Positions 1,912 to 49,459 are shown, counted from the first letter of the whole stretch. The stretch is DNA of 57,367 bases, filler included, from Dimargaris cristalligena (GCA_003614675.1; 2 parts of 2 records of this genome joined end to end with filler, not necessarily neighbours in it); one strand, 5' to 3'. A program made the numbers and translations. The notes: generated by a model not told the origin, from the letters alone.

Positions 1912-2055
1912 ATATGGGTGAACTTCAACCCACCTGTATAGGATTTTACACAATATGTGTATGGGATAATATGTGGGAGAATAACTTTTGACCAGTAATA
2001 TTTACCTCATCAAATGGATTATTCGTTATACAGCCTGGATGAACTTCTGCCTTAT
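1912..2055. mobile_element. MITE-like dispersed repeat, copy A (~144 bp)
   Basis: Starts ATATGGGTGAACTTCA and ends TGAACTTCTGCCTTAT (imperfect terminal inverted repeats). The interior (CCTCATCAAATGGATTATTCGTTATACAGCCTGG) aligns by eye with copy D and with the reverse complement of copies B and C. Confidence 0.75.
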
Positions 2056-2978: not shown

Positions 2979-4762
2979 ATGAGAAGCCTCATTCTGTTCT
3001 TGAGCGTTCCACTGGCTCAACTTAGCCTACCCGTGCCGGCTCAGCCTATCATCGACCCCTGGGAAAAACTACCCAAGGAACTCCGCGAAAATGTGGTGGG
3101 CACTCTCTCGCTGCCAGATCTAGTAGCCGCAGCTAATGTCAACCTGGAGTGGAGGGCCACCATTTTGGAGGAGCCCACGCGACTGAATAAGCTTGTAAGT
3201 ACGCAATTTCATTATACAGTTTACCACTGCCCAAGCCCCAGACACACTCAGCCAGTGAACGCCCTAATCGCCTGGTGTAGGTCACCCTTATTAATGGCGT
3301 GGCCCTTTTAGTGTGTGGTGTACAGGTCAGCGGAAACTATGCACATAATACTAACCATTGTGACTCTTGCAATACCACCGCCCAATTACGCAAACCGCGA
3401 AAAAACAATTTCAATTAGGCCGAAACCCGTTTTTCAGCTAACCCTCTCAGTTACTACAGCTCAGGCATCAGCGACAGTGAGGCGGATCAAAAATTGCTGG
3501 AATTTAGTCCTCTAATTGGCAACCTTGTCCGATCGATTGTCGTCCAATCCATCCATTTGAGTCTTTCTGCCCTTTGCTTTGATAAATTGGGGAATCCCGT
3601 GACTGGTCAATTTCGAGCCCCTCCCGGAGCCACACTCCCCATCCTTACATCAGCTATCCAGGATTTCAAGCCGGAACTCGAATGGCTCGACAAAAGCGCC
3701 CACATTATGAAGGTCAACGAAGGCTCCGCCGAAGTGTTTGATGTGTTTTTCCCCATTCTGGGCAAGATCCGAACGGGGGATTCCGAAAATTTAGCTCCAA
3801 TGATAAAGTACGTGTTTAGTGATACTTTCAGTAAATCTATATGTCGTCAGTTGGAACGTTGGGTGCCATCGCGCTATATCATGTTTCTAGCTATTCTCAG
3901 ATATGCCAACATGCCAAGGACTACTCCCCTATCTGACGTTGATCATATGGCCGATGCATTTAAGATATATCTGCCGGCGGTTATTCAACGCGACATAAGT
4001 AGCACATTGGGTCGAGCGATTAGTACCCTGGTAGTGCAAACCAACAATTTTCAACAGACCATGGACACCGGTCGAATAATTAAATTCGTGGATGAAGAAA
4101 CTGCCCAGAACTATGTGGGGATGGATTACACCTTCAATTTTGGTACGGCTTCATTTGCGGAAGAGAGCACTGAAACGGATTTCGGACCGGAGCATGATGT
4201 CGTGGACATGCCTCCGCCAGCCCCTATTCAATGGGAGGGTCCTTTACCTCCTATTATGCCGGCGGATATGCCAGGCTCCTCATCGATGTCACAAATGACC
4301 CCCGTACCGATTATAATCCCGGAAACTCAGAATATGGCCATTTTGGTTGCGGAAGTTCAGAAAAGACACGAACTTGTCGAAGCTCTTTCAGATCCCAAAT
4401 TTATGAGTCAGCCCCATGATATTATAGGTTACTGTGCCGTCGAGATTGGTCTTGTCAAACGCACTCTTCTCCCGGAAAATTGGACCACCCCCACTAAGGA
4501 GCGTCTCGTCGACCAGTTGAAAGGACCCGAGAGCGAAATTCCACAACTTTGCAGTAGGCTTTTCACATCGAATGACTATCCCATTTTCCTGGATACTGAT
4601 GGTGATGCCTCGGTTCGATTTTATCCGTATAATTCGGAATCCACTGAGCTAAGTACCCCTGAAGAACTTTCAACTTTACCTATTGAATTTGGGTTTATTC
4701 CTGTTACGAATGTGGCAACTGGAGAGATATTTGGTGAAGCACCGCCTGGATTCCAACTTTAA
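2979..4762 (+). CDS. Putative secreted protein with N-terminal F-box-like motif; join(2979..3194,3419..4762), ~519 aa
   Basis: Hydrophobic N-terminus MRSLILFLSVPLAQLSLPVPA. F-box-like WEKLPKELRENVVGTLSLPDLVAAANVNLEWRATI. GTAAGT donor at 3195 and TAG acceptor ending 3418 join exon 1 in frame (phase 0) to the long ORF ending 4762. Confidence 0.75.
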
Positions 4763-4899: not shown

Positions 4900-5990
4900 C
4901 TCAAGTAGGGGCTGGGTCAATCCCTATCCCCTATTACCAATCACTAATTGGCATTAAGTCTTATAAAATTACCAATTCTGTCCTGAATTGACCTACCAGT
5001 ATAGAAAGCAATAGAGGAGTGCACCCATCTGGCAATTGGCTTATTAATGAGGCACTTGAAAATGGCAAATGCAGGTAATTTAAATAGAGGGAGTGTTTCA
5101 AATGAGTCATATATTTATCACCTGGGTTAACCACTCTTAGTCTGTCAAGAGTCCTGAGGATAGGCTTCTAATGGTAGGCAGGGCTTAGACTTGGCCAAGT
5201 GGGCTATTAATGTTAGGTACAGGCATAGTACTAACTAATAGAGGCTTTAAGTAATAGGATATACAAGGGATATGCAGTAGGTACACTTACTGGTCAGTAT
5301 GAGAGGTGAGTATATAGAGAGTTTATTAGAGTAAACTAGGGTAAGAATAAGCTAGGGAAACTAACTGGCCTCAATAGGGACCAGTTGTATATATGCAAGG
5401 ACAACTCCAGAGGGAGGTCCTAAGTGAAATATACTACTAAACTAAGGTATAGGTAAATAGGCTAACTGGATAGTTGTAAGTATCCAGAAGACTCTAATGG
5501 TAACTGGAAGAGCCTTTAGATCAGCATTTAGGTGATTAGTGCAAAGAGATGGAGTCCAGAAGGGGGGGTTATATAATAAGGATAATATCACAGTACTAAG
5601 TATGCCATGGGAAGGCTTAATATGGTGTAATATGGCCTAATATGGTCAGACATCTAAGCCTATAGGATTAAGGCAGATTAGATGGTCTGACAATATTCAA
5701 GTTATTCTTAAATACCAGTTAATGAATCATATGGTTACCTTTTGGAAAACTAGGTACACACTGTTTCTCCAATTGACTTTATTATTTGTATTAGTTCAAT
5801 ATTGATTACTTTATACATAAAGTTTTGGACTTCTTTTATACATACTGGGTTCCCCAATTCTCAATTCAGTATCATTTTTTGTGGAATTGGCTGCTGGAGA
5901 GTAATATATTTAACACACATGAGCTATGTGAATTACCAGATTAATTGTAAGAGAGAAGAATCCTATTTAGGTTATATGGCTCTCACCACT
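4900..5990. repeat. AT-rich, CpG-depleted degenerate repeat/TE relic, family not identifiable
   Basis: No CpG seen by eye across ~4981-5900, abundant TpA, no long ORF. Composition resembles the decayed DIRS copies rather than flanking genes. Confidence 0.45.
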
Positions 5991-6473
5991 CTGTTTTAGC
6001 AGTGGTGATTTTAACAACAGTCACCCATTTGCTTACCAAGGGGTGCCCAACCAATGGAGTTCAAGGTGCCACAGTACCTGACAATCTCTTTTATACTCTC
6101 TCCCCTCTATAATTCTTTTAAATTGATCCAACCTCTACTTACTTTCTACAAAATACAAAATGTATTATTTGTTTTAAAAACTTATTATGTTAATAGAGGG
6201 GAAAGAAAAAAAATCCATAAAAATATTACTTTCCCCAAAGTAGAAAGGAAAAATTTTCTAGCAAAAATTTATTTATCTTTCTCTTTCTTTTATTCCTTCC
6301 TACCAGCCGACCCTATTAGTTTATTCATGTTTACTATCAGAATTTATTCCCTGCCGTGTTTCTTTATACATGTGCACAACTACTTTTGGTTATTATAGAC
6401 CAGGGACTTGTCCATTGTGTGAAATAAGTATTGCCAACATAATTACAAACATCGACGGCATCTATTAACGATA

Positions 6474-6616
6474 ATATGGGAGAGGTTCAACCAGGCTATA
6501 TATCGAAAAATTCATTGGATGAGTCAAAAAATGATTGGTTATGCATTAATATCTCACCTGTTTTCCCATACATATTATTCAAAATCCTATTCAGCTACAC
6601 TGAACCTCACCCATAT
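6474..6616. mobile_element. MITE-like dispersed repeat, copy B (opposite orientation to A/D)
   Basis: ATATGGGAGAGGTTCAACCAGGCT...TGAACCTCACCCATAT; 143 bp with terminal inverted repeats. Confidence 0.78.
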
Positions 6617-6959
6617 GAATATTCAGTGATATTAGGTATCACTGAGCAGGGGAATAGTTAATTAGCATTGCTTCTTAGGGCAATTCTCAGTGGGAGTAAT
6701 GCAGGCCACCTCTTTCCCGGATACTGTCAAATATCTGATAATTTTAATTGGTTCTTGATCGTCAGCCCATCAGGTTATTTGATCAGCCATATTTACATTT
6801 ATCTAGGACAATTCCCTACAGTTACCTACAGCCCACCCAAATACCTTCAACTGGGCTCCCTTTGGAACTAGGAGTGTATATACATATTTTAAACATACAT
6901 ATTTATTAATCTACTCCATTTGTGACTAACCATTGTGATAGAATTGCCTTTATATTATA

Positions 6960-7838
6960 TCAATTGCTGGTGGTGGGGGGACTGGGGGGATGGATATTTT
7001 TATTGTGGCGGTCAAAATTATCTTTGCGAGTGAACTCTTGGTCACATTTTGGACAGGCAAAGGGCTTCTCCTTGGAATGAGTTTTTAAATGGCGGTTGAA
7101 GTCATATCTGCGCTCGAATTCGTCATGACATTTTGGACAGACGAATAGCTTGTTGGGCTTGGGCGATTTCAGCCGGCTATGGGAGGTGTCAATATCCTTT
7201 TCGGATTTCTGAGCACATAAAACGCAGGCAGGTAGTAGTGTATCGAGGCCGCGCACTTTTGAGAGGTCAGACGTGACTTGGGTGTTTTGATATACGCCAC
7301 CACATAAATTACAAGGGCGGGGCTTCAGGACAGCGAGTGTTTTGGATTGGGAGCCGCAATTGCGACTGGCCCCTAATTTCGGATGACAATTGGGGACCCC
7401 TAAAGGATCTTGATAAATTGGGCCACCCGCCTGCTTATAGTACAGGTGTTGCATTTCCTTCCACAAACTTTGGTCGTTAGGATTTAAAGGAATTCCATAG
7501 GAGTGTTCAAAGAGCTCAGGGCCGGCTGTGGTAACATGGTCATTGTCGCTACCACTACTACCCTTGGCCCTCGATTGGGAAACGCCATCCACCACCAAGG
7601 GAACAGGCTTTCCCGGCGGTTGCATTTGTGTATATTGGTCAGGTGGGAGCAATTGGTCCAAATGGCCGGCCATGTTAGCGTTTTCGGGTTCCGGGCTATT
7701 CGGGGGCCAATTAATGTACTGATACAGTTGGAGAAGTTCGAGTTCGCCGGGGTAGGAAGTTTCATTATTCTGTTCGGAAGCACAGCTGAGAGCGAGAGAA
7801 CCCAGGGTAAGTAAACCAATATAGTTTAAGGTATACAT
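6960..7838 (-). CDS. C2H2 zinc-finger protein with signal-peptide-like N-terminus, 292 aa
   Basis: First ATG at 7838 gives MYTLNYIGLLTLGSLALSCA. Two tandem C2H2 fingers FVCPKCHDEFERRYDFNRHLKTH-SKEKP-FACPKCDQEFTRKDNFDRHNKNIH with a TGEKP-like linker, plus an extra CxxC-x25-CxxC. Confidence 0.85.
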   Translation of the reverse strand: MYTLNYIGLLTLGSLALSCASEQNNETSYPGELELLQLYQYINWPPNSPEPENANMAGHLDQLLPPDQYTQMQPPGKPVPLVVDGVSQSRAKGSSGSDNDHVTTAGPELFEHSYGIPLNPNDQSLWKEMQHLYYKQAGGPIYQDPLGVPNCHPKLGASRNCGSQSKTLAVLKPRPCNLCGGVYQNTQVTSDLSKVRGLDTLLPACVLCAQKSEKDIDTSHSRLKSPKPNKLFVCPKCHDEFERRYDFNRHLKTHSKEKPFACPKCDQEFTRKDNFDRHNKNIHPPSPPTTSN

Positions 7839-8294
7839 ATTTTGAGTGTAACAGGTGAAAAAAAGGATTTTATATGAATACGATATTATTTTAACCAACT
7901 GAGTACAAATATACACCGAAAAAAAAAATAACACTTTAAAGTTACTTAGTATAAGTAAATAATAGTAGTGTATAGGGAGATACTGCCACAATAAATCAAA
8001 CGAAAAGGAAAAAAAGGTAGAAGAAATTTAATGTGACGAATGTGGGTGAGGCTATCCCATTATATAAGACCAACTTGACGAACCCTACCGCCTACACAGC
8101 CTTAGCACGATGTAAAATGGGCCGATAAGTATATTAAAATTCACCCCCGATTTATCGGTAGAATCGGCTAAGCTAAAAATAGACGAGGGCTTCATTGTGT
8201 ATCCAATTTCCCTTCTCAACGTTCTTCGGGGTTGAAATTGGCGAATCAAAGCTGTACTAGGCTAATTCGTATACCCTTCCTTTGTGCGGGTAAT

Positions 8295-8438
8295 ATATAG
8301 GGGAAGTTCAACCAGGCTGTGTAACGAAAAATCCTTTGGATGAGGCCAATATTATAGGCTAAAAATCATTATCCCCTCTATTCTCCCACACACCTACTAT
8401 GTAAAACCACATCCAGCTGATCTGACGTTCACCCATAT
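8295..8438. mobile_element. MITE-like dispersed repeat, copy C (same orientation as B)
   Basis: ATATAGGGGAAGTTCAACCAGGCTGTGTAACGAAAAATCCTTTGGATGAGG...TGACGTTCACCCATAT; 144 bp. Confidence 0.78.
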
Positions 8439-10238
8439 CGAGAGGCACTTGCCATTGTCTATTTTATTTATTGGGGGAGGTTCACTTCGTCACCGTGGCC
8501 ACCATACAGAGAAAGTTCGGTGTTAGATAGTGGCCCATTTTCTTTTCGGATTATATTTCTCTGGTTCCACCTTAACCTCCTTACCTAGATTACATTTTAC
8601 GCCCAATCCAAAGGTCTATACGATTGGGGTGGACCTCTTCCATATTGACAATGGCAGGTTAGGTCTACAACCACCCCACCAATACTACCTTTTGGATGCG
8701 TTCGATTGTGAAAACGGACGAAAAGCACCCATATCCCTGTAGGCCAATCTAGGAATTAAACTAAGGGTATTCGCTTGGTGCAATTGTATGAAGATTGTAT
8801 AGGTGACAGACGGTTCAACCTATAAACAGGGACATTCACAGAGAGATGGATAGTAGTCCCTCAATGGGGACATAGAGCGCTAGCAATGCTACCCTCAAGG
8901 GACTACAATTTGAATTACATTTTTTAAAAAAATGGCACCCAGGCTCTCGAATGAGTAGCTTGTTTAGTTAGAGTAGTCATTTATATGGGGTAAGTTTAGA
9001 CCTGTTACATATTTAAAAAACCCTACATTTAGTGGACAAGGTTTACCTAATTAACAGAATGGCCTGTTCATTTTACCCCACCAATAACTACATTCAAGAA
9101 TTTAATAAGGCTCCAGCGAATTTTATATATTGCTACTCATTTATGTGGGACACTCTCAAAAGCCACTTCTCCTGGGCACCCACTGCGCTAGAGCGTCGAG
9201 CTTAGGGGGTGGCTTTTCAAGTAGATGTGGTGTATTAATGGGAATAGGGGAAGTACGTAGTTGGCTGGATTGGCGAAGGGAAATAGCCCTCCTGGGTTGT
9301 AGGTCAAGTGGTAAAATATAAGATTCGAGGGAATTAATTGAGCCCACTTGAAAAGTCAGCAATGCACCCAATGTACAGATGTAGAAATGTCTAGGCGAGG
9401 AATTGAGAATACTCGACCTGTAAAAAATTACAGACATTTGGAGGACAATCATTAATTCATGTGGATGGGCTTGAAGTTAGTAAAGCAATGTGGAAGACGA
9501 TTCCATCAAAATGAAGGTTGGGTCGAAGGGCAACTCTTGGCATATTCAGCTATGCCCTCACCAGTAAGGCCTCTTCTAGCTAATTAACTTTGGTTAACTG
9601 TAGGTATGCCACTTGTAGCCATCTCCTGGTTGACCGCCTTGAAGGAATTCAATGTCCGCTATAGCCCCCAGTCGGACGTATAGAGGCACCAGTGCCACTC
9701 TGACATGGGGGCAACGGTCATATCCTGGGATAGACATTACTAAAGTCAAACGACCGAATCTGCACCCCAGAAATCTAGTTTCCAAGCTCCAGCACCAGCC
9801 TGGCCACAAGCCACTCTGGGGTCACACTGGCAGGGTTTTAGGACCCACCACCCATGAGGTAACGCACTTAAACCAGGGGCTGGAACTGGCTTGCGTATTG
9901 GGACTGCCGTGTATAGCTATTGACCCGGGCTCCTATTGGCGGAGTGGACTTTCTCCGCCCCGACGGATGGTTCTATTTAGACGCATGGACGGGTGCCCTT
10001 CACACAATCACTGAGGCTTGGCTTTCCCAGCTTGACTCCATGACTCAGTCCAATGGGATACCATATACTATATATATATTGACGGATCTCGACCCTTAAG
10101 ACCAAGTCAGTAAATACTTCCAATTCTATACCCCTTTGATTCAAGCTAAGCAGACTCGCTTCTATTCACTCTCTATTTATATTTGCTTTAGTGGTATCCT
10201 TAGTTATTCGTATTGAACACCGCCTCATTTCTGTCGAA

Positions 10239-22848: not shown

Positions 22849-25437
22849 ATGCATCGCTCACTGAGCCTCTGGGGGCTCCTTTCGTTGGCGGTCCTAACCG
22901 CTAATTCGGGCTGTTCCGGTGAGAGCGTCATATCGGGGTCCTACCTGGTTCAGTTCGACACTAGCGATGCCAGCCAAGCCACCGGTACCGAACCATTCGA
23001 GCTGTTTTCTTCACAAATGGCCAAGTTGAAAGTCCCTTTCACGTTTGCCAGGAACTACACTACGGTCGTAAAAGGCGCACATATTAAACTGGACGACAAG
23101 TATTCCGCCATGGCCCAAAAGCTCTCCATCGTCTTGAACATGTCCCCCAACCAAGTCCTAAACCAATCGACCACCATCCACGCCTCGACCATTCCGGGCT
23201 TGACACTCGAACCGAAGGAAAATGTCTATCTCAAAGATAACTACATCGTGGCAACCCAGATTGAAAAAAATCTTTACGGTCGGGGCGTTAAAATTGGGTT
23301 CGTGGACAGCGGCCTGGACTACCGCCATCCGATGTTCGGTGGCTGTTTCAAGACCTGCAGTGGGGCCCGGGTGGTTGCCGGCTATGACTTTGTTGGCGAT
23401 CAATTCACCGGATACAACACCCCTAAGCCGGACAAGGACCCTTTGGATAAATGCAATGGTCACGGCACCCATGTGACCGGTATCGCAGCGGGCAATGTTG
23501 GCGTGTTCCAGGGCGCCGCTCCCCAAGCCCAAATTGGCGCCTATAGGGCCATAGGCTGTGGGGGTTCGACCACAGTCGATCTTCTGATGGCGGCAATGGA
23601 GATGGCCTACACTGACGGTATGAACATCATTAACGTGTCCCTCGGCGTTTCGGCAGGCTCGCCGAATTCCCTTTTGTCGCGCATGGCGACTCAGATGACC
23701 AGCAAGGGGGTGATTGTTGTTGCCGCGGCTGGAGATGAAGGTCAATACTCCCTGTTCACCGTCAACTCACCCGGGGTGGGAACCGGTGCAGTGGCCGTTG
23801 GAAGTTTCGACCAACCCTCCTTTTACTCCAAGTCTATCAATGTGGATAGTACCCCCGGTAAAAACTTCCCCCGGTCGTACACCCAGTCCCCCGAGCTGGC
23901 CTTTAACTTCAGTAAGCAAACCCTGGTTCTGGCCACAGACGCCCAAAATGCGTGGGTCGGCTGTCGCCCCATTACGGCGAACGTGAATGGAAAAATTGCT
24001 CTGGCCCAAAACGGCGTTTGCTCCATCGAAACCAAAGCGGCCAATGCGCAGGCGGCCGGGGCAGTTGCCTTGATTGTGTACGACGTCACCTGGAAAGTCA
24101 TCGATATCCCAGCCTTTAAGAGCAAGGGCCTTATCCCAACGGTGATGGTTGAGTACTCCGCTGGCACATTTCTTCTTTCCGCCCTCCAATCCGGTCAACA
24201 AGTAATCATTTCGAGCGACGACAATATGACTGCTCGTAAGCAAACGGAAAAAGTTGGTGTATCCGACTTCTCGTCCTGGGGACCCGGTCCCGATTTATCA
24301 CTCAAACCCAATCTCATTGCTCCGGGTCGTTACATCTATTCAGCCCTACCACTCGAAATGGGCAGCTACGGGATCGCTACCGGCACGGCCATGTCGAGCG
24401 CGTTCGTTACGGGGGCATTTGCTCTCCTGCGGGAGTTTAACCCTAAGTTGACTAGTGAGCAATACGTCATGATGTTGCTGCCGAAACAGGACCTGCAACC
24501 TTCGCGGTATACCAATTTACACTGCTCACCAGTGCAACAAGGCTACGGGGCCCTCCAAATGCAGAATGTCTTTAATTCGCCCGATTTTTTCTTTTCCTAC
24601 AACTCTAGTCTGGGCGATAACCAAAATGTGGATAACGGAAAGAACTTCAATTTTGAAATTCAATTCAAGGTCGATTCATATGCAAAATACCTGACTTCAT
24701 GGGGCTGGCTCACCTCCGAGGACGTCACCATGTTCACCCCTAGCGGAACCCTCATCGCGCCACGCCTTCGCGTTAACGGGACCTTTACGCCTAAAAATAT
24801 CGAGCCCCTTCCTACTTGGACCACGCCTAATTCGAACTTTACTCACCGTATGACCCTCACCCTCAACGATATGGCGCCGAGACAATGGATCTATGGAGGG
24901 TATATTACGTTTAACTTCCTTAGCGGTACCCGGTCAATCCGGTTCACCTTCCCTTTCCTGGCCATGGACGACAACTTTTCCCAAATTCCCATTGTACCAC
25001 CGAGCACCACCACATACTACCCCCAGCTCATTGATTCCGTTTCGTTGAGCGCAATTCCGGCATCTACGCAGACCACATATCAGCTATCTAAGAAGAAATA
25101 CCCGGCGTTCCAGTATTTCCTCCAGTTTACCACCGATCTGCTGCTCATTTATGTGGTACGGGTGGATCAAACGAGCCAACCGCGCTACCTAGTGGACCAG
25201 GGGCAACAGTCGTTTTTGGCCCACAGTTTTATACCTGGCTCGGACTTCCGCAATTTCGTATGGTCCGGCAACATGGTTAAAACGGCTAGCAATGGTGGTG
25301 CTGACTCGCTCACCGCCGCCCCCAACGGTTCCTACCAATTCCGGGTTCAGTGGAAGCGACCTCTGGCCGATTATGCCTCCCGCAAAGATAGCGATTTTAT
25401 TATTTGGCAGTCACCCACATTCAAGCTTAGTCGCTGA
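22849..25437 (+). CDS. Secreted S8 subtilisin-like protein with PA domain, probably catalytically inactive (Ser->Ala), 862 aa
   Basis: Signal peptide and I9-like prodomain. Motifs GVKIGFVDSG (Asp), NGHGTHVTG (His), PA insert VNGKIALAQNGVCSIETKAANAQAAGAVALIVYD, FSSWGP...LKPNLIAPG. The nucleophile motif reads GTAMSSA instead of GTSMAxP. Confidence 0.93.
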   Translation: MHRSLSLWGLLSLAVLTANSGCSGESVISGSYLVQFDTSDASQATGTEPFELFSSQMAKLKVPFTFARNYTTVVKGAHIKLDDKYSAMAQKLSIVLNMSPNQVLNQSTTIHASTIPGLTLEPKENVYLKDNYIVATQIEKNLYGRGVKIGFVDSGLDYRHPMFGGCFKTCSGARVVAGYDFVGDQFTGYNTPKPDKDPLDKCNGHGTHVTGIAAGNVGVFQGAAPQAQIGAYRAIGCGGSTTVDLLMAAMEMAYTDGMNIINVSLGVSAGSPNSLLSRMATQMTSKGVIVVAAAGDEGQYSLFTVNSPGVGTGAVAVGSFDQPSFYSKSINVDSTPGKNFPRSYTQSPELAFNFSKQTLVLATDAQNAWVGCRPITANVNGKIALAQNGVCSIETKAANAQAAGAVALIVYDVTWKVIDIPAFKSKGLIPTVMVEYSAGTFLLSALQSGQQVIISSDDNMTARKQTEKVGVSDFSSWGPGPDLSLKPNLIAPGRYIYSALPLEMGSYGIATGTAMSSAFVTGAFALLREFNPKLTSEQYVMMLLPKQDLQPSRYTNLHCSPVQQGYGALQMQNVFNSPDFFFSYNSSLGDNQNVDNGKNFNFEIQFKVDSYAKYLTSWGWLTSEDVTMFTPSGTLIAPRLRVNGTFTPKNIEPLPTWTTPNSNFTHRMTLTLNDMAPRQWIYGGYITFNFLSGTRSIRFTFPFLAMDDNFSQIPIVPPSTTTYYPQLIDSVSLSAIPASTQTTYQLSKKKYPAFQYFLQFTTDLLLIYVVRVDQTSQPRYLVDQGQQSFLAHSFIPGSDFRNFVWSGNMVKTASNGGADSLTAAPNGSYQFRVQWKRPLADYASRKDSDFIIWQSPTFKLSR

Positions 25438-48702: not shown

Positions 48703-49459
48703 CTAGGATAAACCAAACAGGGGACCGAGGTTGGGAATGACGGACAGCTGGTTAGAGTCCTGCGGGCCCAGAGGGATGCCCGCGAGGTTGGGCCGGGGTC
48801 GCTGGGCACCGGAGTCACGCTGGGGCGCCGGCGCGGGCTGCTGGGGCTGCGCGAAGTTCTGGAAGCTAGGGGGGGGGTGGGGCGAAACCCTGGGGATTAT
48901 TACCGCCGAAGCCGGGCGGGGCGAAGAACGGTGAGAATTGATTCGAAGCCGGTTGGAACTGCTGGGGCTGGGGCTGGGTAAAATGGCCGGCTGAGTGCTG
49001 GTTAAAGTTAAAACTGGGCTGGGGATCGGGCTGGGCCGGAGGGAAAAAGGGGGTGGTTCCCTGTCGACTTTGGGGTGGGGGGGGTGGGCTGGAACGAGCG
49101 GAATCCGAGTCGGACTTGCGGCCGCTGGAGGATCGGTGTTCCGGGCGCGGTTCGTCGGGGCCTGCACCTGAAACGGGGTAGTCGTCGTCACCGTCGCTCT
49201 CCAACAACTTGCGGAGCCGGGCAAGTTGCTTGGGAGTCAGCTGGTCCCCCTCATCTGACGAAGGACTGTCCCCGTCGGCACCCCGGCTGCCGCTGCCTCC
49301 GGAACTGGACCGGCTTTTGGCGGGGTCCTCCGATCTATCGCGAGACGGGATGGAGGAACTCACGCAATCCTTGTGCAGACACACCCCCAGGGGCGCGTCA
49401 GCGGCAAAGACCGAGGACGTTAATCCCAGGACTAACAGGGATACTAAGATGGGCTTCAT
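48703..49459 (-). CDS. Secreted Pro/Gln/Ser-rich low-complexity protein, apparent frameshift at a C9 run (197 aa as assembled, ~251 aa if repaired)
   Basis: Signal MKPILVSLLVLGLTSSVFA. The ORF stops right after a C9 run (G at 48869-48877), while same-style sequence (SFQNFAQPQQPAPAPQ...) continues in another frame to 48703. Confidence 0.7.

Follow-up and report, generated by a model that had tools for sequence, protein, structure and literature searches.

The window examined here (the whole analysed stretch of 57,367 nucleotides from Dimargaris cristalligena, GCA_003614675.1, with two parts of two records of this genome joined end to end with filler) carries on its minus strand a gene for a 292-aa protein that combines a signal-peptide-like N-terminus with two intact C2H2 zinc fingers at its C-terminus. 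That the gene at 6960-7838 is real, single-exon and lineage-restricted is supported, and its model survived every sequence-level test applied. The protein is tentatively regarded as a candidate secreted, host-directed DNA-binding effector. The alternative of an ordinary orphan transcription factor comes close to it in likelihood.

The open reading frame is difficult to attribute to chance. The stop-free frame extends over 355 codons, with the upstream in-frame stop lying 66 codons before the ATG and no ATG in between. Because the chance of such a frame is only ~3e-10 at the local composition (~3.5e-5 expected per whole window), the ORF is not considered a chance product; translation and these statistics bear out the ORF that the sequence-only reading had placed here. 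GC content rises from 0.23 in the last 120 nt ahead of the ATG to 0.45-0.57 across most of the ORF, and drops to 0.23 again just past the stop. Codon log-odds, which were trained on three in-window genes and checked on five other ORFs, have means of 0.159 (~0.16) in coding windows and -0.33 in presumed intergenic windows. Codons 1-25 of the gene score 0.153, a value reached by 3.1% of 1,661 presumed non-coding windows, and for codons 1-55 the score is 0.215, which 0.3% of 723 such windows attain. The other five frames are negative, with the exception of one antisense frame across codons 26-55. The codon usage is coding-like along the entire 292-codon ORF and agrees with that of the neighbouring genes.

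Sequence statistics also support translation from the first ATG, at 7838, which opens the 292-aa product with the N-terminus MYTLNYIGLLTLGSLALSCASEQ. The presumed 5´ leader contains no ATG in any frame, compared with 2.6-3.7 expected, and a run of this kind was matched in 388 of 20,000 shuffles (1.9%); ATG 7838 is thus the first AUG for any transcript beginning inside the leader. It has an A at -3. The TATAAA motif close to the ATG is of concern for this assignment: if it were a working TATA box, transcription might begin no earlier than the ATG itself, which would leave Met56 as the start. Splicing was considered with reference to the CDK8/Ssn3-type kinase gene of the window. Comparison with the annotated D. 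cristalligena kinase, whose exon parts are identical to the window except for splice-junction residues, revealed three introns of ~140-200 nt each, and all three use the donor GTAAGTT (a small sample). No GTAAGT or GTRAGT donor was found on the gene's strand between 6600 and 9000, which indicates no internal intron or nearby upstream exon; both were therefore rejected for the 292-aa ORF. A true start elsewhere, which had been named in advance as fatal to the proposed interpretation, is indicated by none of the donor scan, composition, codon usage and ATG-free leader.

Table 1. Positions of the gene, its parts and the flanking elements, counted from the first letter of the window.
Feature	Position	Strand	Basis
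Single-exon CDS, 292 codons plus stop TGA (6962-6960)	6960-7838	-	ORF translation
Signal-peptide-like leader, aa 1-20 (MYTLNYIGLLTLGSLALSCA), followed by SEQ	7779-7838	-	hydropathy and crude signal rule
Acidic, Pro/Gln-rich region, aa 21-170, pI 4.88, without detectable relatives	7329-7778	-	composition, relative searches
Two units read as decayed fingers, aa 174-231 (CNLC..., CVLC...H), basic patch at end	7146-7319	-	CxxC register
Basic patch SRLKSPKPNK, aa 221-230	7149-7178	-	sequence reading
C2H2 finger 1, aa 232-254, helix RRYDFNRH; linker SKEKPF next	7077-7145	-	Pfam, PDB search, motif pattern
C2H2 finger 2, aa 260-283, helix RKDNFDRH, H-x4-H	6990-7061	-	Pfam, PDB search, motif pattern
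Presumed 5´ leader/promoter-proximal stretch, 219 nt, without ATG	7839-8057	-	ATG count against shuffles
TATATAA motif, immediately upstream of the ATG-free leader	8066-8060	-	motif position
TATAAA motif, 36 nt 5´ of the ATG	7874-7869	-	motif position
AATAAA, 53 nt past the stop, possible poly(A) signal	6902-6907	-	motif only
~143-nt MITE-like repeat, downstream flank of the gene	6474-6616	+	repeat search
~143-nt MITE-like repeat, upstream flank, same orientation	8295-8438	+	repeat search
~143-nt MITE-like repeat, third copy	1912-2047	-	repeat search
~143-nt MITE-like repeat, fourth copy	55271-55417	-	repeat search

The first 20 residues resemble a signal peptide by a crude home-made rule, which is not a trained predictor. 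To pass, a sequence must have 11 uncharged residues in a row that begin no later than residue 13 and average 2.0 or more on the Kyte-Doolittle scale, with small residues at -3 and -1 within the following 8 residues. The 292-aa ORF passes; counting it, 5 of the window's 101 six-frame ATG-ORFs (minimum length 60 aa) do so. Two of the other four encode a subtilase and a MIR-domain protein, both expected to be secretory, and the other two are small ORFs with textbook signals. In the controls, the rule was passed by none of 948 internal Met positions of fetched proteins (mostly kinases, and not a diverse set), by none of 88 internal Met positions of in-window coding ORFs, and by 802 of 200,000 random sequences (0.4%). 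Ser, Cys and Ala occupy positions -3 to -1 ahead of SEQ, and the h-region is moderately hydrophobic (Kyte-Doolittle mean of 1.9 across aa 7-19), containing Gly, Ser and Thr. The n-region, MYTLNY, carries no Lys or Arg; in contrast, all four other passing ORFs have Lys, Arg or His in this region. Past the hydrophobic core, aa 21-120 carry a net charge of -10, which favours translocation of the C-terminal side. A mitochondrial presequence was rejected, as the first basic residue does not occur before aa 77. The signal peptide proposed by the sequence-only reading is therefore upheld in part: the N-terminus is signal-like beyond chance by the crude rule, but its n-region is without a basic residue. 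Entry of the protein into the secretory pathway is predicted at roughly even chances.

The two C-terminal fingers are well defined. The pattern C-x2-C-x12-H-x3-5-H matches twice, from Cys234 and Cys262, and all ligands are kept in both fingers together with the hydrophobic core residues (Phe241/Phe247 in finger 1; Phe269/Phe275 in finger 2). Pfam zf-C2H2 (PF00096) is detected in two stretches at 31.1 bits, compared with a cut-off of 25.2. In the PDB search, only aa 229-286 align, to the two-finger units of Aart, CTCF, Zif268 and yeast ADR1, the last being the closest solved fungal match (43.6 bits). The linker segment H-SKEKPF-x-C aligns with the TGEKPY of designed and natural fingers and differs at two positions. 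The finger pattern and the TGEKP-like linker together place the pair in the C2H2 class (PF00096, Krueppel-type tandem). At the base-contacting positions, Arg occupies -1 and +6 in both fingers, and the C-terminal DNA-binding part is basic (pI 9.19). Over 62 nt, the coding sequences of the two fingers show 71% agreement. Two linked C2H2 fingers with the helices RRYDFNRH and RKDNFDRH, as read earlier, are thus confirmed by pattern, Pfam and PDB search.

Upstream of these fingers, the array appears to continue in a degraded form. CxxC motifs start at aa 176, 205, 234 and 262, with spacings of 29, 29 and 28 residues, which is the period of tandem C2H2 fingers. The first unit (aa 176) keeps C-x2-C-x3-Y, with Leu and Arg replacing both His ligands, and the second (aa 205) keeps C-x2-C-x11-H and has lost the last His. 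Neither unit of aa 174-231 was matched in the Pfam or PDB searches, and aa 176-194 weakly match the repeated finger-like units of another protein, in one of three weak hits to the N-terminal part. Since the CxxC period is in register with the intact fingers, the CxxC-x25-CxxC segment is most simply read as two decayed fingers of a former four-finger array; its four cysteines could also bind one zinc together. The CxxC-x25-CxxC and the basic patch SRLKSPKPNK described in the sequence-only reading are both present, with the cysteine pairs better read as decayed fingers. No K[KR]x[KR] or bipartite nuclear localisation pattern was found in the 292-aa protein, in which basic residues are supplied by the patch at aa 221-230 and by the fingers.

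The region between the N-terminus and the finger array is acidic, and the Pro/Gln-rich character ascribed to it holds, with 10 Pro and 4 Gln among the 40 residues of aa 41-80. A sequon (N25-E-T) is present within aa 21-170. AlphaFold2 with a single sequence gave a mean pLDDT of 37.9 and a pTM of 0.18, a model of low confidence throughout and unusable.

Relatives were sought at several levels. The whole-protein search among proteins of 160-511 aa returned one hit, an animal-like multi-finger protein, and the search with aa 170-292 returned one hit, a fish ZSCAN protein. Against 1.84 billion representatives, aa 1-228 gave three weak hits at E<=1e-3; the two of these three that were examined were rejected as relatives, both being repeat-driven (a multi-copy motif in one, repeated finger-like units in the other), and no relative of aa 1-228 was established in this set. 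In the Protein Atlas, the whole protein falls to generic C2H2 clusters, the nearest of them fungal, with recognition below usual, and nothing usable came up for aa 1-228. The 58 pattern matches of a metagenome scan all went unconfirmed, and no paralogue was found within the window. No fungal protein was returned at E<=1e-3 in the database searches. Msn2/Crz1/CreA-type orthology beyond the finger motif was likewise not found in the whole-protein, aa 170-292 or N-terminal searches. An orthologue with the same N-terminus, which had been named among the findings that would speak against the effector proposal, did not appear in any fungus in the database and metagenome searches. The exact 292-aa protein and its Met56, Met72 and Met129 forms are also absent from a 15-billion-protein collection. 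That collection does include proteins of D. cristalligena, Tieghemiomyces and Dimargaris xerosporica, so the gene is apparently not in the public annotation in those forms.

The window is eukaryotic, and its other genes encode a PA-domain subtilase, a C2-domain protein, the CDK8/Ssn3-type kinase and a Rab5/Ypt51-type GTPase. The kinase ORF is 99% identical to a D. cristalligena protein, 85% to one of D. xerosporica and 81% to one of Tieghemiomyces parasiticus. Published descriptions make D. cristalligena an obligate mycoparasite with a biotrophic habit (PMC6784888). Dimargaritales are reported to parasitise Mucoromycota and some Ascomycota with the help of an appressorium and a haustorium, and a non-haploid state is considered possible for them (PMC9866270). 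The genome study is reported to have found no gene set marking mycoparasitism; it does describe a subtilase expansion in D. cristalligena, PF00082+PF02225 architectures included (PMC6784888). The subtilase of the window (22849-25437, plus strand) is of the secreted type, with a PA domain and a clear signal peptide.

Several other features of the window were recorded. The Rab5/Ypt51-type GTPase (52916-53749, minus strand) has no introns, and among solved structures yeast Ypt51 matches it best (E 1.7e-60). The GTPase contains an acidic insertion of ~44 residues (residues 143-187) that is absent from the solved Rab5 structures listed. A 102-aa ORF (33306-33614, minus strand) encodes a textbook signal peptide, a KR dibasic site, a Gly/Ala-rich 'glycine-zipper' peptide and a basic tail. 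Its Pfam matches stay below threshold: Bacteriocin_IIc scores 18 bits (E 0.0028; cut-off 27.1), and the other match is glycine zipper 2TM. A secreted membrane-active peptide of the mycoparasite is a possible product. A 197-aa ORF (48866-49459, minus strand) begins with a clear signal peptide (MKPILVSLLVLGLTSSVFA), continues in Ser/Asp/Pro/Gln-rich low-complexity sequence and matches no Pfam family; its product is a candidate secreted protein. An open frame at 30618-31289 (plus strand) shows a sub-threshold likeness to tyrosine recombinases (Phage_integrase, E 0.004, 17.4 bits against 27.1) and may be the remnant of a Crypton- or DIRS-like mobile element.

In the effector reading, which is preferred tentatively, translation would start at ATG 7838 and the first ~20 residues would act as a cleavable signal peptide that directs the protein into the secretory pathway. 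The mature protein of ~30 kDa would be released at the host interface and enter the host fungus, where the two intact Krueppel-type fingers would bind a short G-rich DNA site. The canonical C2H2 recognition code reads bases from helix positions -1, 2, 3 and 6. With Arg/Tyr/Asp/Arg and Arg/Asp/Asn/Arg at these positions, the predicted site is ~5´-GAGGCG-3´. The acidic N-terminal half would modulate host transcription, and the working mode would be like that of MoHTR1-3 of Magnaporthe oryzae, but against a fungal host. As D. cristalligena is a haustorial biotrophic mycoparasite, such a role is biologically sensible. The context is also effector-like: the protein is shorter than 300 aa, its N-terminal 228 aa are an orphan sequence, and the gene lies isolated between two MITE copies.

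Secreted proteins of this kind have been described in the rice blast fungus. Published accounts report 20 curated secreted proteins of M. oryzae with DNA-binding domains, half of them C2H2, and state that MoHTR1 and MoHTR2, which were modelled on the single-finger GAGA protein, reach rice nuclei and bind specific elements (PMC7672089). MoHTR3 is described with an N-terminal signal peptide, a middle NLS and a C-terminal C2H2 domain (PMC10189765). By the layout given in these descriptions, the present protein resembles MoHTR1-3 in being small, with an N-terminal secretion signal (here predicted) and a C-terminal C2H2 domain, and in being lineage-restricted and from a biotrophic fungus. A C2H2 domain within a lineage-specific protein of <300 aa, as in the MoHTR proteins, is present here (292 aa). 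The likeness in action would be host-promoter binding, which is proposed here. Unlike MoHTR1/2 as described, the protein has two intact tandem fingers and two decayed ones in place of a single-finger model, and unlike the described MoHTR3 it has no classical NLS pattern; the host is fungal and not a plant. As the database searches gave not one fungal protein at E<=1e-3, sequence similarity to MoHTR1-3 could lie nowhere but in the finger motif; the likeness drawn here is to their published descriptions. The sequence-only reading had inferred a secreted transcription-factor mimic acting in a host nucleus. The anatomy, the start and the signal-like N-terminus of that proposal stand, whereas the uncharged n-region, the lack of a classical NLS motif and the fact that the kind is already known tell against it. 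Its premise that such two-finger proteins are not secreted is outdated, since MoHTR1-3 have been published as secreted C2H2 host-nuclear effectors. An effector here would consequently not be a new kind, but a known kind in a new biological setting. None of the literature matches listed dealt with a mycoparasite effector that works in the nucleus of a fungal host.

Other comparisons are more distant. Msn2, Crz1 and CreA/Mig1 are fungal two-finger C2H2 regulators. With these and ADR1 the protein shares two Krueppel-type fingers, a TGEKP-like linker (here SKEKPF) and an acidic region elsewhere; unlike them, it shows no orthology, is much smaller, has a signal-like N-terminus and carries other helix residues. 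The TAL effectors of Xanthomonas are bacterial proteins delivered by type III secretion, with TAL repeats as their DNA-binding part. The likeness to them is one of mechanism idea only, namely a parasite-delivered sequence-specific DNA binder with an acidic activation region by which host transcription is reprogrammed, and the proteins are unrelated in sequence and fold.

The strongest competing explanation, which we rate as a serious possibility although not a probable one, is that the protein is one of the parasite's own ordinary C2H2 transcription factors, intracellular and evolving fast. Its acidic half would be an activation domain, its fingers would bind the parasite's own promoters, and its hydrophobic N-terminus would be a product of chance or a structural helix. 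Classic activators likewise place an acidic part (here pI 4.88) ahead of a basic C-terminal DNA-binding domain (here pI 9.19), and this layout counts against the effector reading. The closest solved fungal match is itself a regulator, ADR1, the nearest Atlas clusters are generic fungal C2H2 clusters, and the absence of a basic residue from the n-region points the same way. The reducing environment of the cytosol or nucleus, where zinc fingers normally fold, also suits an ordinary factor; a secreted protein would have to take eight zinc-ligand cysteines through the oxidising ER. In addition, very many windows were screened for the sequence-only reading, so that a rare false-positive signal is expected somewhere. 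An ordinary factor must nevertheless account for a signal rule whose false positives amount to at most ~0.4% in three controls, and for the net charge of -10 in aa 21-120, which favours C-terminal-side translocation. Core regulators usually keep recognisable orthologues, and none was found here even though Tieghemiomyces and D. xerosporica proteins are in the database.

The gene lies alone in ~5 kb of AT-rich, repeat-laden DNA, between flanking ORFs that end at 4762 and start at 10140. The ~143-nt repeat that brackets it has inverted termini, ATATGGG...CCCATAT (ATATGGGAGAGGTTCA ... TGAACCTCACCCATAT), which are intact in the two bracketing copies; the mean column identity of the four window copies is 78%. 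In two runs of the organism, the summed contig depth of this repeat reaches thousands, compared with 19 and 185 for single-copy DNA, and is hundreds of times that of the gene. In both runs, the gene itself has single-copy depth and shares its contigs with its flanks. Contamination was rejected, as the codon usage fits the neighbours and the gene shares contigs and depth with its flanks in two runs. The differences listed between the runs number at least six in the flanks, with none listed inside the CDS. Other very high-copy dispersed repeats, distinct from the 143-nt repeat, were seen at 5500-5767 and 6170-6474, with depths up to tens of thousands. A run of a second organism contained solely such repeats, including a 151-nt piece identical to 8189-8339 at a depth of 2.5.

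In the second run, a contig of 1,421 nt aligns only with two pieces of the window, 7763-7914 and 6611-6725, at ~84-85% identity, and between these two pieces it has 75 nt of its own. The first segment comprises 76 nt of the leader and codons 1-25. A second locus or divergent haplotype would thus share the promoter-proximal and signal-coding part and the 3´ flank with the gene, but not the body. The contig could represent a paralogous locus, a divergent haplotype without the gene body, or the ancestral state before insertion of the finger part. The ~84%-alike copy of the 5´ region and codons 1-25 hints at a reused promoter/signal module. In a more specific form of the effector reading, which we consider unlikely, this early-diverging haustorial mycoparasite would send a sequence-specific C2H2 activator into the nuclei of its Mucorales host, as a fungus-to-fungus analogue of the TAL and MoHTR effectors. 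In this version, the gene may have arisen recently in a MITE-rich compartment, when a reusable promoter and signal-peptide module was joined to part of a four-finger gene.

The same features can be taken to describe a young or decaying gene with little or no function, either a four-finger remnant or a finger fragment captured between MITEs, which would be expressed weakly or never and whose N-terminus would have no selected role. The loss of His ligands in two of the four finger units, the flanking by two equally oriented copies, with intact termini, of a MITE-like repeat of very high copy number, the absence of relatives and of the protein itself from the 15-billion-protein collection, and the second-run contig in which the flanks remain and the body is replaced by 75 nt are all in line with this explanation. 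It is nonetheless improbable. The ORF is intact across 292 codons, every ligand and core residue is preserved in both C-terminal fingers, and the codon usage is coding-like throughout. The ATG-free leader, the A at -3 and the AATAAA past the stop look like those of a working gene, and the between-run differences, at least six in the flank and none listed in the CDS, are a weak indication in the same direction. A secreted or ER-targeted protein that is not a host-nuclear DNA binder, with its C-terminal cysteines in disulfides or holding an extracellular metal, or with the protein retained in the parasite's secretory system, would suit the signal-like N-terminus, the ten cysteines of the mature part and the lack of a classical NLS pattern, but is very unlikely, because the full set of C2H2 ligands, the finger core and Arg at -1 and +6 are hard to explain without DNA binding.

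The secreted, host-directed DNA-binding effector accordingly remains the tentative first choice, and what follows from it differs from what follows if the protein stays in the parasite. In the latter case, the gene would serve as a warning that an orphan transcription factor can come to have a signal-like N-terminus by chance. To our knowledge, the means by which obligate mycoparasites control the fungi they live on are almost undescribed, and a secreted DNA-binding protein would open the matter to direct tests.
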